A DNA stretch of 64,000 nt from Yuukianura sp. NJ FZ-2021 (lineage: Eukaryota), in the NCBI GenBank assembly GCA_046563655.1, contig CM102286.1:3720001-3784000 (forward strand). The letters are read 5' to 3'. The notes beneath the pieces are model-generated. The model did no database searches and was not told the origin of the DNA. It saw nothing but the letters and a program-made list of their open reading frames with translations. Below are positions 11,826 through 45,400 of this stretch, piece by piece. Made by a program: the position numbers and the translations under genes. Numbering within the stretch: position 1 is the first letter of the stretch; every line of letters starts with the position of its first letter.

Positions 11826-12150
11826 ATTCGCAGTTTAAGATTTGTAGAAACCGTTTGTACGTTGTGAAAAAGATTTTAAGCTCAATGTGTTGTGTCGAAC
11901 TGTTCCACAATGCGACTGATTCAACGAAAATGAACTAAATTGGGCATGACCCTGTTATTTTTGGCTTTTTAAGTAAAAAAAACTGTGGGCCAACTCTGCG
12001 TTTTCAGAATAACATTAATCATGTGTAAGAAAAAAAGTGACCCCAAAATTCAAAATTATGGGTAGTAGGCTGTCAACAGAATACATTGGGTTTTTCAAAC
12101 TACTTTTACTTTAAGCCTTACCCCACATAATCGTTACATTATATGAGAAG

Positions 12151-12256
12151 AAAAATTGGTAAAATTTTCAGATTTTTATTCCAACGCTAGGGAGTGCCGC
12201 AACAAAAATTGGTAAAATTTTCAGATTTTTATTCCAACGCTAGGGAGTGCCGCAAC
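12151..12256. repeat. Exact 53-bp direct tandem duplication
   Basis: aaaaattggtaaaattttcagatttttattccaacgctagggagtgccgcaac at 12151-12203 and again at 12204-12256. Confidence 0.95.
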
Positions 12257-12291
12257 GGGATCAACGATTTATATAGGGATAACCTACTTAC

Positions 12292-12891
12292 GGATATGTT
12301 GTGGGTATGTTGCGGGTATGTTGTTGGTATGTTGCGGGTATGTTGTTGGTATGTTGTGGGTTTGTTGTTGGTATGTTGTGGGTATGTTGTTGGTATGTTG
12401 TGGGTATGTTGTTGGTATGTTAAGGGTATGTTGCGGGTATGTTGTTGGTATGTTGTGGGTATGTTGTTGGTATGTTAAGGGTATGTTGCGGGTATGTTGT
12501 TGGTATGTTGTCGGTATGTTGCAGGTATGTTGTTGGTATGTTGTTGGTATATTGTTGGTATGTTGCGGGTATGTTGTGGGTATGTTGCGGGTATGTTGTT
12601 GGTATGTTGCGGGTATGTTGTTGGTATGTTGTTGGTATATTGTGGGTATGTTGTTGGTATGTTGTTGGTATATTGTTGGTATGTTGCGGGTATGTTGTTG
12701 GTATGTTGTGGGTATGTTGCGGGTATGTTGTTGGTATGTTGCGGGTATGTTGTTGGTATATTGTTGGTATGTTGCGGGTATGTTGTGGGTATGTTGCGGG
12801 TATGTTGTTGGTATGTTGCGGGTATGTTCTTGGTATGTTGTTGGTATGTTGTTGGTATATTGTTGGTATGTTGTGGGTATGTTGTGGGTAT
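12292..12891. repeat. 11-bp minisatellite, main variants GTATGTTGTTG / GTATGTTGCGG / GTATGTTGTGG, about 54 units
   Basis: Period visible directly; it produces the 11-aa periodic pseudo-ORFs in several frames. Confidence 0.97.
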
Positions 12892-13908
12892 TTGAGTTTC
12901 AGTTAATTTCAATTTTCTTCATTTCTTTAAGGTGAAACGAAGTTTTGCTTTCCCAACCTAAATTTATGGACTGAAACAAAACAGCTGTAGTTTCTTTCAA
13001 TTTTCAGTTTATTTCATTTATTTCAGTTTCTTTCACTGAAACGAAAAAAGCTACTCTACAGCGAATAACAATAAATAAGAATAAACGGGCTTAGATGCGT
13101 ACATTCTAATAGGGCGTCCATTGCTAATCTGTAACATGTCTGCGGCACCCTTTAGAGTTGAAAAAAAATTCTGAAAATTTTACTGTAATTTTCTTTCATA
13201 TACTGGAACACTTTTATGGGTAAGACTTGGAAAGACTTTACTTTTTGTTCCTGCTGACAGCCTAATGGGTAGGTTCTGTCAACAACAAGATAATTTCAAA
13301 CGACGTATCACAAGAGCAGAGAGGTCAACAAACCAAACCATAGTAGATGCTAACTGAAATAAAAAAAAAACAGCTTCTGAGGACAACGCTTTTTGTGCTG
13401 GTCTTTTAAACAAAACAGAAAATAAATCAAAACTAACATATTAATCTGAAACAATTGCAGGGTGAAATAAAAGTTCATTTCACAAGTGAATTTTTTACAA
13501 AATATATTAAGTAACCCAGACTAATCCAAATGTTTATTCGTACACTACAAGGAATAGACATCCAAAATGTTGGCGTTAACATCTTAAGAACTTTTTGTCA
13601 CTCTCTACAATTAGCCTTTCACTGTATTGCATTATTACAATGTAGATGTAATTACAATGAGCGACAGAGTTTGATGTCGTAACAATCCATTTGCAATGAA
13701 TGGATACATTAAAACATTTTCAAAATAATACCCCAAAATAATATCCATTAAAAGATTGAGTTACAAGAGTAAAGAGTAAGAGGTTTCTGGAGAAATTCTT
13801 TTGTAGCAAAACAATTCGAAAGGAAATAAAAATTATCAGAATAGCACAAAAATGTCAGCGCTCGTCATTGGTGGCATAGAAATCACAGATTTTTTGTCAA
13901 CGAAAACC

Positions 13909-13916
13909 TATATAAA
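13909..13916 (+). promoter_or_regulatory. Candidate TATA box of the PTTH/Trunk-like gene
   Basis: TATATAAA about 90-100 bp upstream of the ATGs at 13998 and 14013. Confidence 0.4.
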
Positions 13917-13997
13917 CCCGGATCTGAGGTATGTGATTTCGCATTTTTCGTTTATTTAGTTTTTCAAATTCCGAGCCTTCTTGGCCTTTTCATTTTC

Positions 13998-15000
13998 ATG
14001 GAGAGAAAGAAAATGAAATTTTTGGTACATTACTATCTATTTCCAAACTTTTTTTGATTTTTGTCGAAAAATTAATTATTTTGAATCACCATTTTCAATT
14101 TACAGATTCTTGGTTGCTTGTTACTTGGAAGCGCCATACGTCCTGAAGCAGATGGGGCTACGACTAGTACTTTGCGACACAGCACATCGTGGGCATTTGC
14201 TGATCCCAGAGATATGGAAATCATCTCCCAAAATGTTGGCACCAACTATTTGACCTCAAATCCAGAAATTTATCCCAAACAAGATTTTGGTTTGTTCCTG
14301 CTGGAACCCAATGGAAATTATACATTGAACGAAGAAGAAAAGCTAAACAACATACCACAAGAATCGCCCATACGAAGTTATTCTTTTCAAAAATGGAATC
14401 CAGTTGACAGCAACATTCAGACGTCAAAACCAAATGCAGTTTTTCGAAAACTTCCGGCTGGTAAGTTGGTCAACTACTTTGTTGATTCATTTTACATTTT
14501 AGTAAAACTTTTATTTTTGTGCTCAATTTCATTAAAATTGTAAAACGTTTTCTTTACTAAAATTAATAGAGCTCGGTAACCTCCTGGGCGACATACGAAC
14601 GAACGAAATTGACGACAAACCGGCATTCCAAGAATGGCTAGGTGAAATGGAGAACCGAAAGCGCAACAATGCGGAAATCTATCAAGAGCAAAAGCGAAAC
14701 CAAGGTGGGCATGCGCACAGTCGAAATCACTGGAACTGCGAAACGGAGTACGGATGGCGGAATCTGGGTAGAAACCATTACCCGCAGTTCGTTCGAACAG
14801 CAAATTGCAATTCCTCTGGCTGTTTCAATGGTTTGTTCCAATGCGTTCCGCGGGAATACACCCTCAAGGTACTCAAAAAGTTGGAACCTGACGAAGTTGT
14901 CAGTCAGTCCACCGCGGCCCAACTTCCCGACACACTCCGCACCTCTGTCAAATTCATTAACGTAACAATCAACATTTGTTGCGAATGTGCACTAGTCTAA
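13998..15000 (+). CDS. PTTH/Trunk-family cystine-knot prohormone (3 exons)
   Basis: Signal (MERKK)MKFL|ILGCLLLGSA, pro-region, basic sites RKR and KR, then WNCETEYGWRNLGRNHYPQFVRTANCNSSGCFNGLFQCVPREYTLKVL..LPDTLR..VTINICCEC, a PTTH/Trunk-type cysteine pattern. Confidence 0.8.
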
Positions 15001-26461: not shown

Positions 26462-27747
26462 AAGATCATAGAGATGAAAGAAAATTAATGGAGTCTTGGT
26501 GTGCTTTCCTGTCAACAAAATACCGTAAAAGTTCCAAACAAGTTGTTCCGTGGAATTGACTAAACCAATAAGACACTTGTAACAGTTGTCAAAGAAAGAA
26601 AAAGTATCGCTGTTTTGTAAAGGTAAATTTTGATTGGATTTTATACTTGAACAATTTCCAATTCAACTGTCAACATGAATAACAGCGGGAAGCAAAACTA
26701 TTTCAAACAAGTTTCATAAATCATAATGAAAGTAATGCAGTTACAGTACAAGAGACTAAAAAAACAAAAAATATGAAAGCATGAAGTCATTTTAGGAAAC
26801 TCAGGAATGGTATGCATTCAGTTGAGGTTGTGTTAGGTTAGTTCAGATTACATTAATTTACGGCTGACCCAAATACACAGTGTAAAATTCAAGGTAAAGT
26901 TTTCGGTTGCATGCTGAAAGTTTGAATAAATTTTTCATTTATCAAGCAAAAATGAAAATGCGAGAAGTATTACACTACATGGTAAACCAAAATTATGTGG
27001 AAAAAAAAGTTAAAAAATTATGCCATAAAACTACATTTAAATAAATACATTTACAGAAAATAAATTTTACCTTAATGTTTTATTGATGAGAAGATGGAAA
27101 CAAAAGTAAAGCGTGGAGAAAGCGGAGAAAGTTGGCTTTCAACTTAACTGTTTCGCGTCTTCCAACCAACTGGAGAAGAGTCTGCTTCAGACCAGAAAGA
27201 AATAGAAGTTCAGGTACGCTGAACGCTGTTCGCAGAAACGCTGCAAAGCGAATAACAAAATAACATAGGAAGTTCAGCACTTTCACCAACTCGTTAAAAT
27301 TAATTTCTAAAAACAAAGGGCGAGGCTACACCAGATCCTGATAATTTTAATAACTGTAATAGGCTCATCACAATCCCGCTCAACTTTCAATTCTCTTTAA
27401 TTAAATTTTCAGTTCTAAGTTTTTTGAATTTGGCCTAAAAAAATTAGCACTGAAAACTTTTTGATGAACATAAATTATTAGTGCAGAATTTTTTTTAAAC
27501 CATAGATAAATTCTTTTTGAGAAATTGAAACTTTTCAAGTTACACTCTACAAATCTCGGGTTTGACCTCTTAAAGTTTAAAATTTGAAAAAGTTTTGACA
27601 GTAGTTTGAAAGATTGTGAAAAAGGTGAATCAAATTTAATGTATGTGCAAGTTTTGCAAAAATCGTTAAAAATTTTCATTGCCAAGTGCTGGCTTTAAGT
27701 ATCTTTCGTCACTTCAACACGTTTCTGCGAACAATTGATTCATTAGC

Positions 27748-27755
27748 TATAAATA
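27748..27755 (+). promoter_or_regulatory. Candidate TATA box of the serine protease homolog
   Basis: TATAAATA about 90 bp upstream of ATG 27840. Confidence 0.4.
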
Positions 27756-27839
27756 CGCTGCAGCGTTAGTCACTTCAAGGAGTTCCTATTTTCAACATAA
27801 GCTTTCCATTTTCCTAGTTTAATTGGTTTGTAAATTAAC

Positions 27840-28949
27840 ATGCTAAGACACGTTTTCCTTGTCATTGGTTGGACAATTGTCGTAGCAGGTGAGTTGAGCA
27901 CTTGTATAAAAAATATTAGTTTCTAAAACACTTTCGAAATTTCGAAATATACTAAGCAATTATACTTCTTTAGCTAAGACGCCTCATATTCATATGAACT
28001 CGACCTGTCGTAAGTAAATCATGAGGTTTAAAAATTTAGATTTTCAAAATTGATGCATGAAAAATGTCATGACGTAGGTTGTGGAATTGTGAATAATGGA
28101 TTACGTTCATACGAGTACGAAACTGCGTCTGCGCTATATTTTCCCTGGATGGTTTCTATCGCAGATCGAAGTGGAAAATCCTTCTGCGGTGGAGTTCTCA
28201 TCAACAAGCAAGAAGTGCTGACCTCTGCACGTTGCGTCCATAACACGTCTCAATCTGCAATTCGACTTATCATGGGAGTCCATGACCTTGGCCTGGCCAA
28301 AGTCAGTGACAGACACAAAGTGTCAAAGATCATTTCACATGCTGAGTTTGCAGAGAACAATGATGGTGGCTATGCATCCTATGTGAATGACATTGCTCTA
28401 CTTGTCCTTCACAAGGCAGTATCTCCAGCTCCAAATATCTCGCCAATTTGTTTGTTGAAACCAACAGCGGAAGATTTGGATGATGAAGCTACTGTTTTGG
28501 GGTGGGGTGAAACATCTACTGATGGAAAAGTTCACGAACAAGCTCTTCAGATGCTTACACTTCCGCTAGAAGAATTGGATGTTTGTGAAAAAGCATGGAA
28601 AAAGAAGTTTCAAAAATCGGAAACCTTGTGCATGGGAAACAAAGGTCACAACATTTGTGTAGGAGACTACGGTGGTACGGAAATTTTTTGAAACAAATTG
28701 ATCATTTCCTAGTAATTTTAAGCATAAATTCAAAAAAAAAACTGAAGAATTGAAATTTTTCTGAAATTCAAACATTAAAACGCAGGTCCTCTTCAAACCG
28801 ATCATATTTTGAAAGCAGTTAAGTTGATTGGAATTGCGTCGACTTCTGGTCCTGCATGTGGAGATGACCTGCAAGGACTCTACACCAATTTCGAACATTT
28901 CCGAAGTTGGGTCAAAACCAATAGCAAATTGTATTCAAAATGCTACTAA
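27840..28949 (+). CDS. Secreted trypsin-fold serine protease homolog, catalytically inactive
   Basis: Signal MLRHVFLVIGWTIVVA. FPWMVSI, FCGGVLI, LTSARC (His to Arg), NDIALL, CVGDYG|GPL (Ser to Tyr); TAA 28949. Confidence 0.88.
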
Positions 28950-29647
28950 AATTGTCTAGAAAAATATTACTATATACAGTCTATAAACAAATCATTTTGT
29001 TTTAATTTTGTTTTTGTTTTTTTTACTCCAAAAATCATACACTTTGCAAAATTACAAAGTTGTGTATGTAGTAAGTAGCGAAGTCATTTACGTCATTAGC
29101 TATCAATGTTGTACCTGTTGGGTATTTATTTTCAATTTACTTCCATATGTTTTTTATAAGTGCTTTTTATCAAAAATTATGCAGAAGATGACTTTCAATT
29201 TACACAGATCGAACAATAAAAAGCGTCAGTCCAAAAAAGCAGATAAATTAGGCCTTTCATTTGCAGGATCTGACGTCGTTGGACTTAGGACTTTGGACTT
29301 TGTACCCCAAGGTTCAGAGAGTTCCCGTAACAACAAAGCTTTTGTATGGCCTTCTACACAGCAATGGTAAAAATGCATTGGGTATAACGTGGAGCAAGTA
29401 CAAATTGAATGCACGGCAACAACCCCGCTTCTGAAGGTCTTTTGACGTAGTAATCTCACGTAAAGTTAATTTTAAGTGGATTTTTTTTAGTATTGTCATT
29501 AGTTTTAGTATAGACTTTGGTGAGGATGGAAGTCTATCATAACCTCTGACAGCAGCTATCAAGTTACACTAACCAGTTTCCACTGATTTCGAAACAACTT
29601 AAATATAAAACACGTAAAATTAGATCTCTCCAGAAACTCCAGACAAA

Positions 29648-30174
29648 ATGCCGCTCAATGTGCAGCATTGTGCAAAAATTTTTGGCACAATAACTGCTGG
29701 GGGAGCTGGAACCACGCTGGCAATTAGCAAGGCGGAGAAGTAAGTTGCAAATTTTATCCCATTTTTATTTTCTTTCTCAGTTCTACTTCTAAAATTTTAA
29801 GATTCTTGGTTAGAATTTTAAGTTCTCGGAGGAAATGAAAAATAAAATTTCGAATTTATTTTTAGAAACGGAAAGAGACCGGAATCCATTTCAAAATCTC
29901 ATCAAGAAGAGAGAGATACTTGGTAAAACATCTTGTTTGCTTTACATATTACACTAAAAACTGTTTCCTGATTTAAAAAACCAGTTTCCAGAAATCAGTT
30001 CAAAATTTAGAATTCAAAATTTAAAACTTAGAATTCAAAATTTAAAATTTGGAATTCAAATTTTTCAATAGGATGCAGATGAGCTGTGACGGATCTTTCT
30101 GGCCACGATCTCGAAGTACAAGTGAGTGTATTGGCGTCATTGGGCGAACAAGCAATTCCACGTTGCGAAAATAA
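29648..30174 (+). CDS. Possible small 3-exon gene of unknown function (~83 aa)
   Basis: MPLNVQHCAKIFGTITAGGAGTTLAISKAE|KNGKRPESISKSHQEERDT|WMQMSCDGSFWPRSRSTSECIGVIGRTSNSTLRK*, joined by two GT-AG introns with matching phases. No recognised domain. Confidence 0.35.
29999..30065. repeat. Short ~21-bp tandem repeat (aaaatttagaattcaaaattt-like, about 3 copies) in a predicted intron
   Basis: Repeated gaattcaaaattt blocks. Confidence 0.6.
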
Positions 30175-30653
30175 CTTTTGCAAAATTGCAAAATTAAGTC
30201 CAGCACTTAAGAAGATCCAGGAAGAAGTTAAAATGGGAATACTTTCCAGAAAAACCAGTTTGACCTAACCATGTCAATCTCCTCTGCAGGACGTACTGTG
30301 TAAACTATAATTTTGTTATTACAGAATGTAGTTCTAAACTACTTTTAAGGATCAACGTACTACGACGTCTGTATTTATTTAGAGCAAAACAACGCAGTAA
30401 ATGCGGATTAATGACCTCTTTTAGAACTGACTTTTTAGATGTCACCAGTTTTATGATACAAAGGAAACTATACAACAGTTCCTCATTTTTGTATTCTCGG
30501 AACAAATTAAACTTTTGATTACAAACTTTTACATTTGGTAAAATAATTTAGAATTTGTGACTTGATCTCTTACGCCGAACCAGCTAAATTAGGTTTTTAG
30601 TTCTCACCAACGTGTTTACAATTGTATCAGCTACTGGAATAGTTGGTTCCGGA

Positions 30654-31599
30654 CTAGCCCTCTACGCAAGCCTAAATTGGATAAGAAAAAATTAAATAAG
30701 TTAGGATAAGTAAAATTAATTATAAAAAAAATATATAGTTAAGTTACTATTCCAATATTTGCCGATTTTGAACAAATTAATAAAAATCTTACGTCAAGGA
30801 AAACATCGTGGACGCATAACCCAACAGTATTGAATTCAATGCAGTTCGGATCATTTGGTTGACGTACTTTGGTTCCTGGAACAAAATTTCAAATTCAAAA
30901 TTTTAAAAAATTGAAAGGAATGAGTTTAAAGCATTCCAGAAGCCAGAAACTGAAGTTGCTTGAAGAAAGGATGCTGAGTAAATGTGTTAATATATGTAAT
31001 AAAATTTTAAAAAATTCGTTAAAAATAAACACCATGGTCCTTGATGCATTTTTCAACTCCCTCGACAATAGGTTTCTTGACTTTGTCTGGTTTCATCACA
31101 TCCATGATGTACTTCAAGATGGAGTCGTGGTCGAGACCTTGTGGTTTAAAAAAATTTAAAGTAGAAAGAATTAAGGTCAAGATAGGATGAAATTTTGATC
31201 AAGGAAATGAGCAAAAACCTCCTTGGGAATTGAGCAGTTTCTTTTTCTCCAAGATACAGATACCAAAGCAGGAAATTTTCTCCATAGGGATTTTCCAAAT
31301 AGAAACGATCTTGGATTCAGCTAAGCAATCTGTAATGACCCTAAGCTGAGTTTCGGTCATGTTGAGGTCTTGCCCAAGACATTGGATTTCTTCCTGACCA
31401 TTGGTGACCTAAAAATATAAATTTTGCACAATGATTATAAATTATAAATAGCAAAAATTATTACGCAAGCATTTGTCTCTTATGTAGCACATACTGCCAA
31501 ACGTTTAATTTAGGAGACACTCTCTGAATGTAAACTTACATTGCAAATCAACGCAAGGAGGAAGAGGGTTAGAAAATGAAAACCGCTAACAGTAATCAT
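30654..31599 (-). CDS. Odorant-binding protein (PBP/GOBP family), 5 exons
   Basis: Signal MITVSGFHFLTLFLLALICN. Six-Cys OBP pattern: TDC, SCFGIC (C-x3-C), EKC, NCIEFNTVGLC (C-x8-C), plus an extra N-terminal (IQC) and C-terminal (ACVEG*) Cys. TATA-like motif at 31714-31705. Confidence 0.8.
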
Positions 31600-32865
31600 T
31601 TTGAGATTTTAGTACCAAATTTTTTGAATGTTTCAAATTTACTTTTCGAGATTTTGGACAGTTTTGAATTTTGAATTTATCTTGTCCGCTGATTCTAAGT
31701 TTTCTTTTTATATACTTTTGACCATACTTTGCGCTTCCTTTGGCTAATGAGATGACCGAATTTTGTGTTGCATATGGCTATTGTGTTGTTTTGTTTTAGT
31801 CCATGTGCGTGAGGAGATGATTAACATTTGGAAAAAGAAAGTTGAAAGTACTTCCGCTATGACTTCCATACTGGAACGGAAGTGGAGACCATTGACAGTA
31901 TCACGGGGTCACAGAGATGCTGAAATCGGCTGCATCATTGGAATAGGTCATAGAACCTTTTAAATGTTTGGAAAATTTTTAGGGTAAACAAAATTAGTCA
32001 TAACCAGGTTGGGAAGTTTTCTCTCATTAACTATTGTTTTAGTTCTAGTTAGAAAAATCTGCAAATACAATGGAATGTTTTGTTTTTTACCAAATGCCAC
32101 ATTATCATATTTCTACATTTTGAAGTATTTTTAGCATTTCTTCTGTAATTGTCCAAAAAAAGATTTTTTTTTGTTATGAAAGTCAGCTACAAAACTTTTC
32201 TACTTATTAGAAAAAGAAATTGTTTGATTGAGTGAAAACGCTTGAATACTTCGATGGCCTTTTCAAGTTTTCCTGTTATGTTTATGTATTTGACATCCAA
32301 AACTAAATACTTTTTAGACAAAAATTTATTTTTGCAAAAGTGTTCCATTTTCCTTTACCTGAAATTGTTTCATTTTTTTTTCGCAAAATGCGAAAACTGA
32401 ACTAACCGTAATATGTATTCGTGTTTCGAAAAACAGCGGTAAATATCATACATTATAGTAATTGCTAAAACAAGCTAGCACAAGAGGGTGCTGATGACGC
32501 TCATAGATGAATGAGTACGGAGAGAAAGCAAATTGCAGTAGCTATGTAATTTAGTGGCAGCACACGGCGCGGAAGATGAGCATTCAATTGACATCTCTAA
32601 CCTTGGAATATTCCGAAAAAAAAATAATCTCTACCTCTACGTCCACTCCCATTGTATCTCCTTACTTCAACCACTTCAACCCACATTTTTACAGCTCCGT
32701 TCCATTAACTTGGTTTTGAATCATTGTGCAACTGGTAAGAATAAAATGTAACACTTTTCAGTCACGATTTCGTTTAATGTATCGTTTAATTAACAAAGTA
32801 GCTGTTTTTCTGATGTTTTTTTTTTATACAGACTTGTATCGCACCTACCGGTGGAAGGATTAAAC

Positions 32866-35094
32866 ATGACATCCATTGCTAGAAGTGTAGTTCGATCTCC
32901 ATTTATTACACGATGGGCTACTGGAGGACTACTGGTATCTGCTGGTCGACACCGGGTTCCGAACCTCGTGAGGACATTTGCAGAGCAGGCAGCCCAATCA
33001 GCTGGTCCGAAGGCCAATCCGAATGCCGGCGGTGGAGGCGCTGGTAAACTACTGTCAGCACTAATCGGAGCCGCTGCTGGTGCCGGAGGATGCTTGCTTT
33101 ATCAGAACTGGCAGAAAGGTATTCAACAACACTTAATTCATGTATGATTGAGTAGAATTAGAGTCATTTTACTTCCGAGTATGATGGCTCCTCGCCATTG
33201 CCTCGTCCACAGCAATGTTTTTTTTAGTCTCATGTCGGCAGATTCCACGTCGATCAAGCATACTTTACTGATGTTTGCTTTTAATTCACACCTAACTAAA
33301 TAACGGCTATTCAACGTTCATGCATAAATAATAATAATAGGAAAGGAAACCCGTAACCAAGTAGAATTAGTCAATTGTTCTACGGGTTTGATTACAATTA
33401 AAGCTGCTTACGTCCTTGTTTGCGTAATTCCTGAGCGTTCAGCTTTCAAAGTCAAAATTAAGCGCTGTCAACTATTCCATTTCAGTTGACTAATTGCAAT
33501 TCCCTTTCAATAAGTCTATTTAACAGGGCTGTGCTTATACTTAGGTTAATCGCATTTCCCACTAGTAAGGTTGTCAAAAAATCTGCGCTTAAAAAACAAA
33601 AAAAAGTGTGCCAAGTTTTTGTTTTCTTACTGAAGTAAAAGAAAAACAAAAGCCCAACGGTTAAATAAATTATTAAAATAAAATTAGTAACTTATAATGA
33701 CTGGATCAGTCATCTAAGCCAATTCGCAGCAATTGAGCGGAACCGATTCGTTTGAGGTGAAAAGTGCCGACGGGAGATAATAATCAAAATTGCTGTGTAA
33801 GCGGAGATGGGAAAGGAGCAATCATACTTCCTTGTATACGTTTTGTTGATTTTAGACGCAGCATGTTCCTCTTCCTGTTCAGAAGCCAAGTATCAAAAGG
33901 TTGATACTGATTTTTTGCTTGACATCTCCTCTGCTGGAGTCACTTTACTTGCAAATTATGGTTTTTCAGGTTTATGATGACATTGCGCGGATTTTGGATG
34001 AGGATAGCGATTATGACTATGGAAGTTATGGACCCGTGTTTGTTCGACTTGCTTGGCATGCCGCTGGAACTTATGATAAGGCAAGCGGAACTGGGGGATC
34101 CAACAAAGCCACAATGCGATTCGAACCAGAATCCAAACATGGCGCCAATGCTGGGCTACATGTTGCTCGTGATAAATTGGAAAAGATAAAACAGAAGCAC
34201 CCTTGGATTTCGTACGGAGATCTTTGGACTCTTGCTGGATGCGTCGCCATTCAACAAATGGTATAACTTGAAAACAAGTTTTCTTGACTTATTCTCGTAT
34301 TATAAACAAGTCGTGTATTTTGTATCAGGGTGGACCAATCATTCCATGGAAGCCTGGCCGTGTCGGTGAGTTCTTTCATGATTTCAATTTTATTGTGTAT
34401 TGTTCATTGTGTAGGAATTTAAAGCTGAAATTTTAAACGTTAGATGGAACTGCTGCTGACTGTCCTCCTGACGGAAGACTTCCTGACGGAGCCAATCCAA
34501 ACCCGCAGCATCCAAGAGACATTTTCTATCGGATGGGATTCAATGATCAAGAAATCACGGCGCTTATTGGAGCTCACACTCTTGGAAAGTGTCACGCTGA
34601 TCGATCAGGTAAAAACTAACTTTTGTTATTTATTAAAAATACTTACATCAGGATGAGCTGTTAATGATTATCATGCTACTTTTTTCTTATTTCCGTCAGG
34701 ATTTGATGGACCATGGACGAATTCTCCTACTACATTCTCAAATTCCTTTTACACTGAACTTCTTCAGAGAAACTGGGTTGAGAGAAAGTGGAAAGGTCCT
34801 AAGCAATTTGCGGACAAAGAAAGCGGGGAGCTTATGGTAATTAGTCAATTCTTTCAAAGTTATACTTTAAATACATTGTCATTGTTGCAAAATTTAAATC
34901 TTGTATCTTAGATGCTTCCTGCTGACATGGTTTTTATCAAGGACAAAGAATTCAAGAAATGGGTTGACACATATGCCAAGGACGAAGCCAAGTTCTTCGC
35001 CGACTTCACGCAGGCTTTTAAGAAGTTGATTGAGCTCGGAGTTCCATTCAAGGAAGATGCGCCCGAATTCAAGTTCAAAACGCTCTCTTCATAA
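32866..35094 (+). CDS. Mitochondrial cytochrome c peroxidase (class I heme peroxidase, CcP/APX family), 7 coding exons
   Basis: Arg-rich presequence [12 protein letters not shown] and hydrophobic [27 protein letters not shown], distal [61 protein letters not shown], proximal [38 protein letters not shown]. Confidence 0.95.
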
Positions 35095-37891
35095 TTATAC
35101 CCTCAAGACTCCAAAACCACATCCAACTGCCTTCCTTTCGTTGTTGACACTTCAGTGAGATTCCCCCATGGACTAATTCTTAATTGGATCTCACTTCCGT
35201 TCCTTTTGTTCGTCCAATATTCATTACAACATGCTCCCAACTACTACCATATACACAGAACTGTACTCTCTGTCTTTCTTGTGTCAAATGACGATTTCAC
35301 AGAGCCAATAAATATCCAGTTCAACTCAAATTGGCCTCTTTCTTTTAAATTATTCCCACATCACCCATATTATATTCTAATCAACAACTTTCTATTCTTC
35401 CAGATTGATTGAGCAAGGCAACTTTAGTTGAACGTAGAAGAGCAAGTTCCAAGTGATGTGCTGTCACGGAGTCGACATAGATAGAAGGAAGACATAAGAA
35501 TTTCAATTTTACTGAAAGTAAGTAATGAATTTTAATTGGTTCTGAAATTTGAAATGCTCTTCACATTACCATTGCCAATTTTATTTTTGCAGGTTTACTT
35601 GCTACTCTAGGTTGCTATTGAAGCTTCGTGACGTGAAAATTGAATATAGTAAGGCTAGAAATTTTCACCTGTCGGGCCGTCATGTGCATTGAGTGTGGTT
35701 AAGGTAAAGTGGAAGCAATTTTTATTTGTTTGTGTACTGATGAAGTGACTTGTGAAGGTGAAAATTTCTGTTTTCAAATGTTTCACAGATCCTAGAATTT
35801 TAGTTTGGAAGTTAATGTAACTATACAATTGGAAATTGCATATGTACCACTAATGAGTTCTCCTGGTACCTGGTAATTGGATTGTTAGAACCTTGGAACA
35901 GAACATTACGAAGAGCTCAACACGCAGAAGCACAACTAGCGTTCAGTCGGGATCTTCTAGAAGAGGGAGGACGCGCTCTCACCAAAGCCAAACTTTTGGT
36001 AAAAAGCTAAAAAGCAATAGGAAACTTCCTCATTCCGTCAAAACGTCACTTGACTTCAATTTCCAGTCTCCGGAAATTCATGGACATACTAAAGTAGGCC
36101 AACTCAAATTTTTACTCATGTGTTTGTCTTTTCATTCCATTGCGACAGTATATTGTTACTAATTTTCACTCATTCCAGAATTAACAAAACTTGACAACAG
36201 AAGACATTCGTCTGGAAAGCTTCAGTTGTCATTTTTTCAAAGGTAAGAATACAGTGAAACTTCCAACTTAATTTTCAAGTGACACCTTTCTAAATTCGTG
36301 CTTTGTTTTTTAAATGGGTAAGTAACACGAGTAATTTGGGTTTTACTGATACTTTACGACGTAAATACTATTAAGGCTATCGCTTCAACCTGTAAGGTCA
36401 CTGACATTGTGTTAAGTTCAAAAGAACTTACAAAAGCCTCCATGTAAATTAGCATCGTCAGGTGAATACTTAAACAGAAACTGTAACATTGCTCCTCGAA
36501 ATTCTATTTTTGATGAACAGTTTCACAATTTCTGAGGTTAGTGTTACAACCCCGTTTGGTAAATTACTCAATAATTTATTGTGCCAGTGATTTAATTAAT
36601 AATTGATTGCCCAGATGCCTAAATTCTATAAAATGACACTTGAAACCAAGGTTCCGTGACAACGAAAAATTAATTTTCTTTAACAGGTTGGGTACTACCT
36701 CGCTTGTTGACAAAAAAAACGAAAAGAAAAAACAAAAATTGGTACCAATTTTAGTACCAATCCAAAAATTTGGTACCCATTCGTATGCAAAATTGCAAAA
36801 ATTCGGCTGTATTGTTATGACTACGATGCCATGCAATCAAATGGCATTCTTTTTTGCGGAAAAAAACATGAGGTTTTACCCAACCTGTTAAAGAAAATCG
36901 AAGTCAACAAACCTTGCTTGAAACGAACTTCTGGAATTTTGAAATTCTAAAATTCGAGAAGTGTTTTGATCATACGAAATCTCAATTCTCGTGTCATCGC
37001 TAACTAACAAATTGTGATAGCATCAACAAAAATTAACGTGTTTTTATTTGTATAAACGTTAGGAAAACGAGTTTAGGAAATGAAACTGCCTCCACCTTAC
37101 ACACGATAGTATAATACTGTAAAATGTAAATTGTTTAACCTTGTTAAACTTGAAATTAACGCAACACCAATGTCAAACTTTCACTTTCCTGTTCACGCTT
37201 CCCATTCCATTCTCAAAAATCAAAATCGCCTCAAAGATCAGTTTCCTGTTCTGCACATTTTGGTTTCTAAGCATTTTCGAATTTTTAGTTTCAGAAACAG
37301 CGAAAGCAAAAAACGACAATTTTTATTTTGTATTTTTTATAATCGCTTCTTATATCATCAATTCAATTTGTTTTTCAAAGTTACAATCTACAACCAACCG
37401 CAATCTTAGTCATTACTCTCAGATCAGATATTGCAAGAGCCACTATTAACTCGCTTAACGCACTTGATACTTGATTATCAAATGTCTTATTCTTTAGTAT
37501 CGAATGGGTTTATAAAACTATTTGTTTGTGTATCAAAAAGGTGCGGTTGGATGACTCTTGACCGCAATATTGCGGCCAAGAGTGCCGCAAGTTATAATGT
37601 ACTTTAGCTAAACTTAAGGAGAAACTCATTTCGATTTTAGTCCACATTTAGTAAATAGTCTTAAATTTTTACTTATATTTTTAGTTAGTTTTTTGAATGA
37701 ACCTAACTCTTAGATTTCCTCTTAGATTGTTATGCTTTGTGCTTACCCCAAATTACATTGTAAGATGTAGACATAGAAGGTCAAGTTATTAGGAACGTGT
37801 TTCACTACAAGTCCGATTTTAGCCTTACTACCGTGGGGTCAATTGCTAACAAGAAAAACTTTTTCCCAGTTTGGCATCAGCTACGCTCCGC

Positions 37892-38915
37892 AAGACATCT
37901 GGCACTTTTGGAACTCTGTTGACAATTTAGAGTTTTTCTAACCAAACCTAAAGTAAATTCACTTCAAACGAATGTAATAATTAACATAACCTAATTAATT
38001 AATGTTTTAATTAACATAAACAAGTTAACTGGCCTAATTATTTTCTTTAAAATAATTTAAGTATAAAATATTATGAATTGACCTAAAATTTGAACAAATT
38101 AACCTAACATAACGCTAACCTAATAAAATATTAACGTGTAGTTACCCAATCACCAAAACAACATTTTGGAAAAAAAAATTTTTTTTTCTTACAAACTTCA
38201 TAGAATTTCACATGCTATGGGGGGAAAAAGGGTTCCGATTTTTGGACAACTTACTAAATTTCATTTTGTGTAAATATGAGGTGCCTTCGACTCTAAAACT
38301 TTGTTCATTAAAAAATTTGGAGATTTGGAGTAAAAAATTAATACTTATGAAATTACCTATCCTTATACTAATTTTTAAAACATGACTTCGTAGGGTTTAG
38401 CCCAAGCTTCAGTTAGCAGCGTTAACGGCCTCAGAAATCTGCAAAAAAGTTAAATGTTACCCCTCGAAAGAGTTACGAGTTACTCCTCCAAAAGAGTTAC
38501 GAGTTACTCCTTTCCGTTTCTGGATTAAAACGCCAGGTGTAGTTCATTAGTGCGGACCTCTGGCGGAACAGAAATTTGCGTTTTACCCATAGCATGTGAA
38601 ATTCTATGAAGTTTGTAAGAAAAAAAAATTTTTTTTTCCAAAATGTTGTTTTGGTGATTGGGTAACTACACGTTAATATTTTATTAGGTTAGCGTTATGT
38701 TAGGTTAATTTGTTCAAATTTTAGGTCAATTCATAATATTTTATACTTAAATTATTTTAAAGAAAATAATTAGGCCAGTTAACTTGTTTATGTTAATTAA
38801 AACATTAATTAATTAGGTTATGTTAATTATTACATTCGTTTGAAGTGAATTTACTTTAGGTTTGGTTAGAAAAACTCTAAATTGTCAACAGAGTTCCAAA
38901 AGTGCCAGATGTCTT
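37892..38915. repeat. Long inverted repeat: 330-bp arms (37892-38221 and 38586-38915) around a 364-bp spacer
   Basis: aagacatctggcacttttgg...catgctatggg is the reverse complement of cccatagcatg...ccaaaagtgccagatgtctt, with no mismatch seen by eye. The spacer contains aagagttacgagttactcct twice. Confidence 0.95.
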
Positions 38916-39048
38916 ACTACAAAATATTTATAGCTGCTCCCCTGCAGCTTTGTGGTACCTACATTGTTGACGTCCTATTTTTATTTATCGTCCCTCCATG
39001 TACGACACAGGATCTTCGTCCAATCTTTTGCCGGCTAACGAGCTGAGA

Positions 39049-42000
39049 ATGGGTGGACTCCGGGCAGTATTCGGCAAATTTAGTCGCCGAAAAGTACTGG
39101 ATAACTCAGAGCAGTCAGAGTTGAAACGGGTTTTGTCAACATTGGACTTGACCTTGCTCGGAATTGGCAGCACCTTGGGAATTGGCATCTACGTTCTCGC
39201 TGGTTCCGTGGCAAAGAATGACGCTGGACCGGCCGTTGTCATTTCATTCCTCTTTGCAGCCGTTGCATCTGTACTTGCAGGTAAAGTAAACTAAAATCTA
39301 CTTGAAGTTCAAGTTAAGATAACAACTTAATTAACATCCTTGTTTAAATTACTTGTGGGCATTCCCTGAAATCATTTGCACCAAAATGAGCTTCTACGAA
39401 ACAATGCTGAGTACAGATTCTAAGCACCAGGAGCATGCAATGGTTCTATTTCGTTGGAGGCGTTCTAAAAATATTTCGTTAAGCGGTATTTTTTTCGATT
39501 AAATATTTTACTTATTTGAACAGGTCTCTGCTATGCTGAATTTGGATCTCGTGTGCCCAAGGCGGGTTCTGCTTATGTCTACAGTTACGTCTGTGTAGGC
39601 GAACTTATTGCATTTATCGTCGGCTGGAATCTCATTATGGAGTATGTCATAGGTCAGGTCACCTACTGGAATTTTGTCAAAATTTTACCAAATTTTCAAA
39701 AAAAAATGTGTTTTGAATAGGTGTAGCAAGTGTGGCCAAAGGCTATTCTGGATATGTGGATTCACTTTGTAACAATAGCATGCATGTTCTGTTCAAAGAG
39801 TATGCGCCCATCCATGTCGAATTTTTGTCATCATTTTTCGACTTTTTTGCATTTGCAATCACCCTCCTCGTGACATGTAAGTTTTACTTTTATTGCAGTA
39901 TAAACTTACTAAACTAAACTTTACGAAACTTTTTCGTTATTGTGTAGGTGTTTTGGCATTCGGAGTAAAAGAATCTTCGTTGTTCAACAACATTTTCACG
40001 GGTTTGAATTTGACCGTTGTAGCGTTTGTGGTCATTGCTGGAGGAATTTTTGGTAAAAATGTTATAAATTGTCGTGTAACCTTGATTTTCCAGTGAAATT
40101 TTTGAAATTTTAGCAAATCCTAAAAATTGGAGCATCGATCCTGCTTCAATCGATACAACCAATATGACGAATCCGCATATTGGAAATGGAGGGTTTGCAC
40201 CGTTTGGATTTACGGGAATTATGAAAGGAGCGGCGACTTGCTTCTACGGTTTTGTTGGTTTCGATGTCATTGCGACGACGGGGGAAGAAGCCAAGAATCC
40301 CCAAAAAGCCATTCCGCTCGCAATTATTTTTTCGCTTCTGTTCATTTTCTTGGCGTATTTTGGAATTTCGACAGTTTTGACCATGATGGTTCCATACTAC
40401 TTGCAGGTAAACCAAAATTCGACACTTTTTCAAGCATGCGCACTTGCATACTTGTCTAAATCATACACAAATTGAAATCGTATGTATTCCAGGATGCAGT
40501 GGCACCTTTACCTGAAGCATTTACGCTAGTCGAATTTCCCGCGGGAAAGTGGATCGTAACTGTTGGTGCTCTGTTTGGACTTTCGACGAGGTAAGCGGCC
40601 TGTTTTCCTTAATCATGAAAATGTTTTGGCTTAAACAGAACGCTGATGCGTGATTATATATTTTCAGTTTGCTGGGTGCAATGTTTCCAATGCCTCGGGT
40701 AAGCAGATTTTTGACATGTTGTTTTCATGTCAATTGAACCAGACGATTATTTATTGCAAACTTAATTGGACACTATACTTGTTAATGGATTTCGTAGGTC
40801 ATTTACGCCATGGCAAGCGATGGAGTTGTTTTCAGGTTTCTGGCTCATGTTCATCCTAAACTCAAAACGCCATTTACAGCAACTATCCTTGCTGGCACTT
40901 TTGGAGGTTCATTAAAACGATTACAATACAACCACGATTTTGAAACGTGTGTCTCGTAAACGATTTTGTCCAGGGTTCATGGCAGCCCTGTTTGATCTGG
41001 ATGCTTTGATTGACATGATGTCAATTGGAACGCTTACTGCTTACACTCTAGTAGCTGTTTGCGTCCTAGTACTAAGGTAGTTTCGAAAATTTTTACAACA
41101 CAACATCACTTTAGCAATTAACCATAACATAATTTTGAGTTTTCACTTTTTCGAAGTTTACTTTCTCTCCTTCGTATGTTTTTGGACTTTGGCATTTTTA
41201 ACTTGTGAAAGCCGATCCGGAACGCGCCGAAAGGAGGCGCCACTTGCCTAGTTAAACATAAGTGAGATGCATGTATGTAATGTGTTTTGTGTAGGTATCG
41301 GAGAGATGCCGACGGAGCTGATGATGCATTCGGAACAGATGAACGATATTTGACCAAATGGGGAATCGGACATTTCCTGTTACAAAGTTTTAATTACCCG
41401 AAAACACCAACTCCCTCGGAGTTATCCACAACTTTCTCGGGATATATCGTCTTCTTTTACTGTAAACTTCACAATTATTTCAAATATTATTTAAAATATT
41501 GAAAACTAGTCATCAAAAATAACCAACTTTTGAATTTTTAGGTATGGTAACAATTTGCTTCTGTGCCACTGCTGCGTTTGCTTCTGATAAAATCATGGGA
41601 GGAAATATTTGCTTCATCGCCCTCCTGGCAGTTTTAGCACTCCTGCTAATTCTTATTCTTTTGTCGCTAAATGCCCAGCCAGTGTCACTGGCTAAATTGC
41701 CATTCAAGGTCAGCAACACTCACCTTACTATTTATGCTCAACCTAGCACCGTTTCCCGACAATTTTGAGTCTAAATTGTTACAGGTTCCGCTTGTGCCCC
41801 TGATTCCTGGTCTAAGCATTCTTGCCAACATTTACCTAATTATGAATCTGACGGGTCCAACATGGATCAGATTCGGTGTTTGGATGCTGATTGGGTTTTT
41901 AATATACACGATTTGTCTTTTGAATGGAACCACCGACAAAGCATATGCTCTGCACCTACAAGATGCAAATGCCAACAGGGAAAGCAGCTTCAAACGAAAT

Positions 42001-42114
42001 ACATTCAAGAACATATTCAGTCAAGACCAAGGGACAGGAATACCCTTGGCAACATCGCCGCCGCGTTCTCAGAGTGATTATGGTACCACAGGTATGGGAA
42101 GTAGTATACAGTAA
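39049..42114 (+). CDS. Cationic amino acid transporter (SLC7A1-4/slimfast-like, APC family), multi-exon
   Basis: [121 protein letters not shown]. The start could lie in an upstream exon. Confidence 0.93.
41224..41252 (+). mobile_element. Helitron/Helentron-like 3' terminus inside an intron of the transporter gene
   Basis: GC-rich hairpin GCGCC-gaaagga-GGCGC followed 7 nt later by CTAG then T, in the gene's longer introns. 5' end not identified. Confidence 0.35.
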
Positions 42115-42425
42115 GTCCTCTACTTTATGAAGATTTTCTATCTCTGTCCACTCTATGTAGTAAATATTTAACTCTTATTTGTGTACCTGCTTGTTAGTAA
42201 TTTAATACGTAAATGTATCTTATACTTTTACTTGGATGTCATCTCTGAGGATTAAATTCAAATTCTCAAGAATACAACTTATGAACTGTTAACACTTAGA
42301 AAAATGTGTTGAAAAAAGTATCCTGAACTTACTGGACGAAAAGAAACTTTAAACTAATTTATAAGTAAAGTGTTTTAAAGGCGAAGATTTCACCAAAAAC
42401 TTCTTACCTTCCCAAAAATGAAAAA

Positions 42426-45400
42426 TCACTGAGCAAACATCATTCGTCTGTCCATCCTCGTCTCCAAAACGCGCGTTACAAAATCTTCACATTTTTCTCG
42501 TAGTGCCTGGAGAACAGGCTCGAGTTTCGGCTGTTCGACGAGATATTCGTTTATCTGATTGGCCAAATCTTCAATTGTGGTGTAGGGAATGATAGGCGTC
42601 TGGACGTATGGCGTTACAGTTTGGATTGTAGGATCATATCCCTTACCATCACGTCTTCCCAAACCGACATCCAAAACCTCAATGCTAAGTTCAGCAGCTT
42701 CTTCCCAATCTCCAAACAGCATGAAGCAAAGAATCAGTTGATTTACGTCTCGTTTCTAAAATATGATACAATTTGAGTTGGGTTAATTATCTTGCTTCTA
42801 ATGATTAATTAATTAAGTGAAGTTTAAGTAAGCAATTACCTTGTAAGAGTCCAGTAGCCACCTTGGGAGACTTATATAGTAGCGCAGTAGTACTGTCGTT
42901 GCTTCTTTGTGTAGCTTTGTCTCCTTGCCTTTTTCCAAGGTTGTTACATATTTTTTTAAGACAAGAAAGGCAATATCTGACGCAGAAAGATTTGCATTTG
43001 GTAAATCTAAAACAAAAAAAAAAGAACTCACAATGAGAAACAGACACACTAAGAAAAGAGTGTGAAAGAGGCTTTGAGATAAAAAGATAAAATCAAGTAT
43101 TTAACGATAATATTTTGCAAACTGAAATTACCAGAAGTATCGAGGTGTTTGACGCAATCAATGTCAGAGGGGTCCGGCGACGGATTACTCAGCAAGTTGG
43201 CACACGTTAGAGCAAGCGCACTGACAATAGGAAGGTATGAAATATTCCAAAGAGTCGCAAGCTTTACTGCTTGGTCGTAGTGATGCAGTTGAATCAATTG
43301 TTGAATGCAGACTTTGGCTTTCTCACGTTTAACTGTAATGCAATAAAACAAGAATTGAAACTGATTTGCTGAATGTTGACCAGAATTTTTCAGTGTTTTG
43401 GGATTTCGTACATTCGGATTGGATAGGCGCAACGTCCTTATCGTCGTTTAGCAGCAACAGGGAAATACAAAGCTCACATTCCTTGTACATTTTTTCATAT
43501 GATTTGGTGTTTTCTCGCAGCTCCTCTTCTTCTTCCGATAGAACCTTTAAAACAAAGTAACGTTTTGATCATGGAGTTAGCATTCAAGAATGATTTTGAA
43601 AATTATACTGTTACCGGTTCTTGAATTGACACTTTCATTAACGTCCTCAGCCAATCCTCGACCTCCACGCCATCACCAGACCCGCCTCCAAGTTTTTCTT
43701 TTGTATCTTCTTCTTCTGCTTTGATCAGCGTTATGCAGGTGAGTATATCCAGATAACAGTCTCTTTGGATTTCTAGCGCTGCTCGTCCTTTTCCTTTCAA
43801 TCCGACTTCAACAATGCGCTCCAACAGAACAGTGGCAGCTAAAAATCGAATCAGAATTTCATATATCCAAAATTCATAAAAGAAATTGAGCACTTAAGGT
43901 GATGTTGATTGGTCAAGAGAAGACATACCTCTTTGAAAACTATTTCGAGACAGATAGTAGAAGTAAACCATCTGATAAATACTGTTCTCTGCCAATGGAT
44001 CTGCCAGTTTGACTTGAGCCTGTAAAACTTTCTCAATTTCACTTCGTATATTACTGTCCATATAATCTTCAACTTTGAGTTCAACCAGGACGGCGACATC
44101 TTTCTTCTCCAAAACGCGAATCACAAAAGTCCGAAGTGAAGCCTCACGTTCTTTCCCGGGCAGCACTTGTCCATTTGCTCCAATAGACTCTTTTGGCATT
44201 CCGAGGATAAAATCAAAAGCACTTTCGTAGTCTCCCAGGGCCAATGCATTTTTGAAGCCAAGTACACTCATGATTCGAGTAGAACGGTCATCTCGACAAA
44301 TCAAGAGAGCTTTTTGTGTCAAACGCTGAACACCGTAAGGGAAACCAAACACTTGGAACAAACTAATCGTCTAAAAACAAAAAATAAAGCTTTACAGGTT
44401 TCAGTTTGCAGGCAATTCTAGTCACTTGAAATTAGAGTTAAATGTTGTTCAAGGTCATATTACCTTTTCATAGTAAGCATTAAAATGGTTTCCGTCATTC
44501 CCTTTCATTCCGAGCAGTTTGGACATGTACGGAACATTTTCCAATTGAACTGGAGAAATCGACGCGAAGCGATTCAGAGCTGTGAGAGGATCCCGAACAA
44601 ATAATTCTGTAACACCTTTGTAGAATGAACCTGTAATGAATTCGCATTAGACGGTCAGTCAATTAAGTTTATAAAATATTTTTCAAAACTCTGTTTCACA
44701 CAAATACTTACTCAAAACGGTGTTCTCGATGCTCGATTTACGAAGATACCTCAGATGCCCAGAATATGCAGCCAGTGCATTGTATTGTCCAGCCGAAATA
44801 AGAAATTCTTCGAAAGGGCGATCAATCGAATCCTCAGTAACCCATCTTTAAAAAAATAGCAGACTTTTAAAGAAAATTTATACAGATACTGATACGAAAC
44901 GAATTCACAACTTACAAACTCTTCCCAATTGCCGAAGCATAAGCCACAACGCCAACCGGATTCTTCAACAGATCTACTCGACTTCGAATTGCCAATCCAC
45001 CCGAGGAGGAATATGAGAAGAATTCCAGTAACTTGACAGGCCAAAAGTCAGGTATTTTTCCATGAATTAACTGATCCGTTGACCCACAGTTTAACAAAGC
45101 TGCAACTTTTCGACTGTTTTCACTGCATTTGAAATTAAAGCAAATGTTAAGAAGACGAAGTTACTTTACACAAAGGTGTGTACAGCTGAACAGCTAAGAG
45201 CTGATTATCTTACGTCCAGTTCTCCAAAACGAACTCGCCAGGTTTGTCACAAAGTGAAAGCAGACAGAATGCTCTGAATACAGTAGACTTGGCAATTTTC
45301 TGGTCATTGTATGAAACGGACATGTTCAGTACTTCCGGGTCCGGTTGAGAAACAAAACCATGTAAGATTGCTTGTAGTAGTAGGGTGTTCCTTGCGATGA

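Follow-up and report, generated by a model that had tools for sequence, protein, structure and literature searches.

The window analysed here is a stretch of 64,000 nucleotides (nt) of contig CM102286.1 (assembly GCA_046563655.1, positions 3,720,001 to 3,784,000 of the forward strand) from Yuukianura sp. NJ FZ-2021. It contains a gene for a heme peroxidase, which lies on the + strand between window positions 32866 and 35094 and consists of seven exons and six introns (Table 1). All six introns begin with GT and end with AG. The joined exons comprise 1110 nt, corresponding to 369 codons and a TAA stop. The spliced product was compared with P0001, a 376-amino-acid (aa) relative which is coded without introns on a 1421-nt contig. 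The two proteins could be aligned over their full length with 76% identity (81% over the columns used for tree building). Exon junctions 2 to 6 fell without gaps into conserved sequence; junction 1 is located in a variable stretch and was accompanied by a gap of three residues. The six GT-AG introns, the exon count and the coordinates proposed in an earlier annotation made from the letters alone (the sequence-only reading) were correct. The peroxidase gene is real and intact. Its introns have a GC content of 0.33 and its coding sequence one of 0.48, the mean of the window being 0.366. At third codon positions (GC3) the value is 0.405, as compared with 0.35-0.46 in ten flanking host exons. An AATAAA hexamer, possibly a polyadenylation signal, occurs at 35307-35312, about 210 nt past the stop codon.

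Table 1. Coordinates of the peroxidase gene, its parts and its neighbours in the window. Phases refer to the reading frame; L003 is the related genomic contig described in the text.
Feature	Position	Strand	Description
Exon 1	32866-33118	+	aa 1-84, ends in phase 1; start codon and putative N-terminal targeting region
Putative matrix-targeting presequence	32866-32979	+	aa 1-38, up to R36-T-F|A
Gly/Ala-rich hydrophobic segment	33043-33099	+	aa 60-78; may serve for sorting to the inner membrane or as a stop-transfer signal
Intron 1	33119-33855	+	737 nt, GT-AG; absent in L003
Exon 2	33856-33899	+	44-nt microexon, aa 85-99; its end ..YQK matches up with P0001
Intron 2	33900-33969	+	70 nt, phase 0, separates ..YQK from VY..; identical site occupied in L003 by an 80-nt intron
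Exon 3	33970-34260	+	aa 100-196; distal pocket R125, W128, H129
Intron 3	34261-34328	+	68 nt, phase 0, follows ..QQM; identical site occupied in L003 by a 78-nt intron
Exon 4	34329-34365	+	37-nt microexon
Intron 4	34366-34443	+	78 nt, phase 1, before DGTAADC; absent in L003
Exon 5	34444-34608	+	proximal His253; R262
Intron 5	34609-34699	+	91 nt, phase 1; absent in L003
Exon 6	34700-34836	+	W269 (Trp191 equivalent), M309
Intron 6	34837-34911	+	75 nt, phase 0, between the two Met codons; absent in L003
Exon 7	34912-35094	+	M310, D314 (Asp235 equivalent), C-terminus, TAA stop
Small upstream gene	31022-31608	-	about three exons, signal-peptide-like start; weakly odorant-binding-protein-like
Cationic-amino-acid-transporter-like gene	38971-42114	+	several exons; PF00324 E 1e-13, PF13906 E 2.1e-18
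Trypsin-domain exon	28032-28691	+	PF00089 E 7.4e-34

Scanned singly with the PF00141 profile (cut-off 27), exon 3 (E 1.4e-16, 61.4 bits) and exon 5 (E 2.4e-10, 41.1 bits) gave matches, and exons 1, 6 and 7 gave none. Exons 6 and 7, without a Pfam match of their own, could be aligned with class I peroxidases of solved structure. The best solved match was yeast cytochrome c peroxidase (CcP) for exon 3 (E 1.2e-23), exon 6 (1.4e-5) and exon 7 (5.7e-11). In these alignments R125, W128, H129, H253, W269, M309, M310 and D314 of the window protein correspond to yeast residues 48, 51, 52, 175, 191, 230, 231 and 235, respectively. The motifs RLAWH (R125/W128/H129), GAHTLG (H253), GPWT (W269) and MM/LPAD (M309, M310, D314), on which the sequence-only reading had based its assignment to the class I heme peroxidases, were all present. 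The protein has the characters of this class, namely the PF00141 match, the distal Arg-x-x-Trp-His and a proximal His with its Asp partner. In an alignment of 15 proteins (A1; nine from the animal clade described below and six from early fungi) the Arg, Trp and His of the distal motif, the proximal His and the Trp191 equivalent were invariant (15/15). Trp191 and the Met230/Met231 pair of CCP1 are residues tied to the cytochrome c peroxidase type. The window protein has Trp at the 191 position and equivalents of both Met residues; as judged from these residues it is of the CCP1 type. By analogy with yeast Ccp1, cytochrome c would be its electron donor.

Some of the comparisons pointed to ascorbate peroxidases. 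R262 aligned to the position at which plant ascorbate peroxidase has the Arg that binds ascorbate. This Arg was found in 15/15 rows of A1; the six fungal rows, which have it too, carry just the database name 'heme peroxidase'. Exon 5 had its best solved match in a chloroplast ascorbate peroxidase (E 1.9e-16, versus 3.6e-9 for yeast CcP). Among the solved matches of exon 6, entries named ascorbate peroxidase occupied ranks 2 to 6, and some of these presumably represent the Leishmania enzyme. Plant ascorbate peroxidases have Phe at the Trp191-equivalent position. Assignment to the plant-type ascorbate peroxidases, which would call for Arg plus Phe, was rejected: the Arg (R262) is present, but Trp (W269) occupies the 191-equivalent position.

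The N-terminus has the appearance of a two-part mitochondrial signal. The first 38 residues contain six Lys or Arg and no Asp or Glu and end in R-T-F|A; the pattern R-x-F|A is presumably the R-3 motif of the processing peptidase. Residues 60-78, which are rich in Gly and Ala, have the highest 19-residue Kyte-Doolittle mean (1.49) within the first 128 residues. The Arg of the presequence was invariant in the 15 rows of A1, and the layout of a charged part followed by a hydrophobic one was kept in the consensus of these arthropod and early fungal rows. In yeast Ccp1 a two-part signal leads to insertion into the inner membrane, cleavage and release into the intermembrane space. By analogy with the yeast protein, these presequence features suggest that the window protein would take the same import route and would reside in the mitochondrial intermembrane space.

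Relatives were collected by searching 5.8 billion proteins twice, once with exon 3 and once with full-length P0001, and 120 matches of each search were listed. The exon 3 search yielded 1809 matches at E <= 1e-10 among 1888 scored candidates, the best being 86% identical. The named ones among the matches listed were mostly fungi with identities of 67-79%. The clusters of ten unnamed representatives were examined: one was an Orchesella cluster, one a Bradysia cluster, two had fungal names and six were nameless. The Orchesella cluster contained springtail proteins from O. cincta (ODM95189.1) and O. dallaii (CAL8113172.1), and the Bradysia cluster proteins of two sciarid fungus gnats, namely XP_037040115.1 of B. 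coprophila, whose contig measures 23 Mb, and KAG4078611.1 of B. odoriphaga. Close relatives were located on Mb-scale contigs of O. dallaii and B. coprophila. The matches listed for P0001 included 11 single-domain clusters at 490-870 bits and three longer proteins (536-649 aa, 505-521 bits), among which was an entry named Euglena ascorbate peroxidase. From 455 bits down, the best fungi among these matches were all Mortierellomycotina (e.g. Actinomortierella, Entomortierella, Benniella, Podila and Mortierella). The multi-domain proteins P0257 (2731 aa), P0259 (1095 aa) and P0459 (Euglena gracilis, 649 aa) contain two or three peroxidase domains and rank high because their domain scores add up; they were excluded from the trees. 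Orchesella and Bradysia were the only named animals of the clade among the matches listed. The window protein was 66.5% identical to a Scleroderma protein over 272 residues and 62.7% identical to O. cincta ODM95189.1 over 367 residues. An ESM Atlas search with the O. cincta homologue returned fungal peroxidase clusters only.

The main tree was calculated with IQ-TREE under the LG+C20+F+G4 model from 73 rows and 352 columns, the rows being sampled from the matches, with Mortierellomycotina, Glomeromycotina, Kickxellomycotina, Zoopagomycotina and more chytrids added. In this tree an animal clade of 16 rows, which included the window protein, was recovered with support of 100/99. Its sister group consisted of 12 Mortierellomycotina (99/95), and the two together were placed within the zygomycete-grade fungi (94/88). 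Fungi plus the animal clade were separated from six algal or unnamed outgroups with 100/97. Within the animal clade the window protein formed a subclade with P0001, P0004 and P0458 (100/96). A 159-row FastTree and a 59-row tree, both lacking Mortierellomycotina, likewise united the animal sequences in a single clade; the position of this clade next to Mucorales plus Dimargaris (94/85) in these trees was superseded after the full-length search. By tree position and match ranking the window protein is closest to Mortierella-like fungi, and the named records of Orchesella and Bradysia are the basis for assigning it to what is presumably a small clade of springtails and sciarids. O. dallaii has a second, divergent copy (P0484, 393 aa, on a 4.29-Mb contig) with 53% identity to P0001 and an end branch of 0.65. 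In the tree it joined the animal clade in the vicinity of Orchesella and Bradysia, which suggests duplication after transfer.

Intron positions, whose comparison with fungal genes had been proposed together with the sequence-only reading, were examined in a metagenome scan. The scan gave 80 loci, of which 77 were outside the animal clade (29 of these longer than 3 kb). None of the six intron sites of the window gene was used in the 77 fungal or protist loci (0/77). These loci had introns, or in-frame insertions containing stop codons, after about residues 122-137, 151, 173, 217 and 297. No Mortierella-like genomic locus was among the loci of the scan. L003, a 2029-nt genomic contig belonging to the animal clade, had introns at window sites 2 (80 nt, between ..Y-E-K and V-Y..) and 3 (78 nt with stop codons, after ..Q-E-M) and none at sites 1, 4, 5 and 6. 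Two further contigs, L001 and L002, coded without introns for P0015 and P0409, so that, as with P0001, close relatives occur on intronless contigs in full length. One chytrid-like metagenome contig (L038) carried two class I peroxidase genes arranged tail to tail, at 1873-2589 (+) and 2662-3372 (-), whose products were 65% and 31% identical to the window protein.

Linkage of the gene to its surroundings was checked with Logan contigs assembled from the DNA runs of two studies and mapped to window positions 27500-42500. A 10,721-nt contig (depth 54.3) covers 27500-36673 and contains the peroxidase gene together with the trypsin-domain gene; the following long contig, which bears the transporter, has a depth of 53.2. 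From the second study, a 5,316-nt contig covers 31022-36310. The Logan contigs diverge from the window by about 3-4%, therefore they are not copies of one assembly. The segment 36673-36882, where a very high-depth repeat is located, was bridged by no single contig among those listed, and linkage of the transporter to the peroxidase gene is based on the window assembly and the equal depth of the contigs. The sequence-only reading had asked for reads spanning both flanks: the upstream flank was joined to the gene in both studies, whereas no single listed contig reached the transporter. Its description of the neighbours also held in part. The transporter was confirmed by PF00324 and PF13906, but the upstream gene, called an odorant-binding protein, gave no Pfam match at E 0.01 and scored only 13.3 bits (E 0.088) with PBP_GOBP, below the cut-off of 22.

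Two exons of a GH38 mannosidase in the window fell into a group with one unnamed and three Collembola sequences (SH-aLRT 99); among named sequences they came closest to those of Orchesella dallaii and Allacma fusca (74% identity each). Judged by this one flanking gene, the host would be a springtail or a near relative of springtails. With its GT-AG introns, its GC3 and the contigs from two studies, the peroxidase gene is integrated in the host genome. Residence in an arthropod genome, as first suggested from the letters, is borne out by the host-like GC3, the GT-AG introns, the spanning contigs and the mannosidase that groups with Collembola.

Taken together, the data make it probable that the window carries an intact nuclear gene of a springtail-like arthropod which was derived from a fungal CCP1-type gene, most likely that of a Mortierella-like (Mucoromycota) soil fungus, and which later acquired host-style introns and codon composition and diversified in springtails and sciarids. 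The case for a fungal donor is built on the best topology, the similarity ranking and the very narrow distribution of the gene in animals. Horizontal transfer, probably from a fungus, had already been suggested by the sequence-only reading, and the maximum-likelihood tree (99/95 with Mortierellomycotina) and the ranking of the matches support it, with the caveat of the following test. Several points weigh against this interpretation. In an approximately unbiased (AU) test, a tree in which 51 fungi form one clade excluding the 16 animal rows was 14.59 log-likelihood units worse than the best tree (p-AU 0.195); with an earlier set of 28 fungi the difference was 7.87 units (p-AU 0.318). Therefore, a donor within the fungi is not proven by this single gene. 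Introns 2 and 3 could stem from the donor gene, the compared loci being without Mortierellomycotina. Of the acidic yeast residues 34, 35 and 290, which are part of the docking surface for cytochrome c, the equivalents of 34 and 290 are Ser in the window protein, and that of 35 is Asp for Glu. In the stretch corresponding to yeast 31-37 the protein is acidic at 4/5 of the acidic yeast positions. R262 and the ascorbate peroxidase match of exon 5 would be compatible with ascorbate or mixed specificity. Finally, expression of the window copy is predicted from a gene model at the DNA level.

Three other explanations were considered. The gene could be an ancient opisthokont CcP inherited vertically, kept in springtails and sciarids alone and lost in other animals. 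The AU tests, which do not reject an animal clade outside all fungi, are consistent with such a history, and so are the putative cytochrome c peroxidases of choanoflagellates mentioned in the accessible part of a review (PMC4420034). However, the best tree sets the clade beside Mortierellomycotina, Orchesella and Bradysia are its sole named animals among the matches listed, the sciarid copies fall within the springtail-type clade and not opposite to it, and very many independent losses would be required; we consider vertical inheritance very unlikely. A fungal gene misjoined to animal DNA by contamination or chimeric assembly might account for the high identity to fungi, such as that to Scleroderma, and for a coding sequence richer in GC than the window mean. 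This is hardly credible in view of the six AT-rich GT-AG introns at sites absent from the 77 fungal or protist loci, the GC3 within the host range, the contigs of two studies that span the gene and its flanks, the depth of the peroxidase contig matching that of its neighbour, and the close relatives on Mb-scale contigs of O. dallaii and B. coprophila. The third explanation accepts the same origin and assumes a different chemistry, with ascorbate or another small molecule as the main reductant or with a hybrid activity like that of the Leishmania peroxidase. It could draw on R262, on the solved matches of exons 5 and 6 and on the two docking residues that are not conserved. It is judged unlikely, as the Trp191 equivalent and both Met residues are kept (plant ascorbate peroxidases having Phe in place of the Trp), CcP was the best match for exons 3, 6 and 7, the protein lies inside the fungal CCP1 clade, its N-terminal signal resembles that of mitochondrial CCP1, and the Arg equivalent to R262 is shared by all rows of A1, fungal ones included.

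The product of the gene may act as follows. Import would be directed by the two-part N-terminal signal, in which the positively charged presequence with its R-x-F|A site precedes the Gly/Ala-rich hydrophobic sorting segment, and, on the model of yeast Ccp1, a soluble heme enzyme would be delivered to the mitochondrial intermembrane space. There H2O2 would oxidise the heme with the help of the distal Arg, Trp and His, and a Trp radical would be held by the proximal His-Asp-Trp triad. Re-reduction by two molecules of ferrocytochrome c would complete the cycle, so that the removal of peroxide would be paid for by electrons of the respiratory chain.

The sciarid copies were analysed in a 19-row tree rooted with six early fungi. 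Bradysia together with P0059 was sister to Orchesella (93/93), and the window protein, P0001 and P0004 formed a separate branch. A constraint that joined the window protein to both named Orchesella proteins, against three rows of the Bradysia cluster and the fungi, was 12.97 log-likelihood units worse (p-AU 0.012), although the test is weakened by the group having been defined post hoc. Among unnamed proteins, P0059 (299 aa, on a 1389-nt contig) came closest to those of Bradysia. It ends in 18 residues that resemble the conserved W-S-G-P-K-Q-F stretch frameshifted by +1/-1, and this tail was trimmed before trees were built. Two fragments of the sciarid type bear on intron positions. In P0017, which has a Bradysia-like N-terminus, homology stops right after ..Q-E-M, i.e. 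at window intron site 3. In P0132, a member of the Bradysia cluster, homology starts at D-G-S-A.., i.e. at site 4, and continues without a break over sites 5 and 6. Sites 3 and 4 enclose the 37-nt microexon.

Tentatively, these observations might be explained by two successive moves, the odds of which we would put somewhat below even: a gene passed from a Mortierella-like fungus to an early springtail and later went, as animal DNA with its post-transfer introns including those around the 37-nt microexon, from a springtail lineage near Orchesella to an ancestor of the sciarid fungus gnats. Arthropod-to-arthropod transfer, old paralogy and repeated uptake from closely related fungi remain as alternatives for the sciarid pattern. 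Because of the shared intron sites, transfer between arthropods or old paralogy is favoured. In our literature searches, a link between springtails and sciarids through this peroxidase gene and its shared intron sites was not found in print.

Other parts of the window showed features of less direct relevance. Besides the mannosidase exons, the window contains an AKAP17A-like exon and an exon of a rhodopsin-type receptor (26 bits, below the Pfam cut-off of 30.5). At 36646-36916 the contig depth was huge in four DNA runs (e.g. 68,894 versus about 200 in one of them), with many alternative joints and loose ends, and contigs end at this place. The stretch, which separates the peroxidase gene from the transporter, is probably a dispersed repeat of high copy number. 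On the + strand at 29650-30300, between the trypsin-domain gene and the small upstream secreted gene, there are short open segments that GT-AG joins might connect; two of them, 29624-29740 and 30083-30265, gave no Pfam match even at E 10. At 12191-12935 there is a long tandem array, with repeating units such as GYVVGMLLVCC and NIPTTYQQHT, in which several frames of both strands are open. The strongest GC skew of the window (0.294) was found in the bin 12001-14000.

The transfer itself is already known, since the Orchesella orthologue has been listed as horizontally acquired, and the window gene adds a member to the group. The available part of the O. cincta genome paper (PMC4987106) reports 253 horizontally transferred genes, of which 30.4% are fungal. 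Its supplement places Ocin01_11493-PA under GO:0055114, with a cytochrome c peroxidase of Mortierella verticillata as best match. The 34 genes in the GO:0055114 row equal in number the 34 oxidation-reduction genes given there as horizontally transferred, and from the matching figure the table is taken to be the Gene Ontology (GO) table of transferred genes. The guess in the sequence-only reading that similar transfers might have been catalogued was therefore right. In the accessible text of PMC4987106 no discussion of the peroxidase gene was found. In two supplementary files of the Folsomia candida genome paper the terms 'peroxidase', 'cytochrome c peroxidase' and 'PF00141' occurred 0 times. 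We found no paper discussing a cytochrome c peroxidase gene in springtails, in Bradysia or other fungus gnats, or in connection with horizontal gene transfer in arthropods. The presence of superfamily members in Metazoa is noted in the part of review PMC4420034 that was available. A 2024 paper (PMC11665903), in its accessible part, proposes transfer of terpene synthases within arthropods, from mites to Sciaridae, and the word 'peroxidase' is absent from its main text.

The gene may be of wider interest for several reasons. Animals normally clear mitochondrial peroxide by thiol- and selenium-based enzymes. A heme-containing CcP in the intermembrane space would represent a different peroxide sink, coupled to the respiratory chain, and it may matter for fungus-grazing soil animals that face metals, drought and oxidants. 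The gene would also offer a clean case for studying how foreign DNA gains introns and host codon usage and keeps a working organelle-targeting signal. The link between springtails and sciarids is, after the terpene synthases, a second candidate for gene traffic among soil arthropods.

Of the known systems, yeast Ccp1 (EC 1.11.1.5) and the fungal CCP1 clade share with the window protein the PF00141 domain, the distal Arg/Trp/His, the proximal His/Asp/Trp with the radical-bearing Trp, the Met pair and a long N-terminal extension with charged and hydrophobic parts, and the window protein falls inside the fungal clade. In contrast to yeast Ccp1, the window gene is in an animal genome and has six spliceosomal introns at sites absent from the 77 fungal or protist loci, and its product has Ser at the 34 and 290 equivalents and Arg at the ascorbate-site position. 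Another member of the 16-row clade is the O. cincta gene Ocin01_11493 (ODM95189.1, 'Cytochrome c peroxidase, mitochondrial'), which likewise has a Mortierellomycotina fungus as best non-animal match; it comes from another springtail lineage, and the window gene is in a separate subclade. The Bradysia coprophila protein XP_037040115.1 ('cytochrome c peroxidase, mitochondrial-like') is also a member of the clade, and sciarid fragments share window intron sites 3 and 4. It differs in having a dipteran host (Sciaridae) and in grouping with Orchesella (93/93), and P0132 is unbroken at window sites 5 and 6. A parallel is provided by the canonical terpene synthases of Sciaridae, which, according to the accessible part of PMC11665903, are likewise enzymes of a non-animal type whose hosts are soil microarthropods and, within the insects, Sciaridae; there the enzyme is a different one, and the donor proposed was Acariformes, not Collembola.

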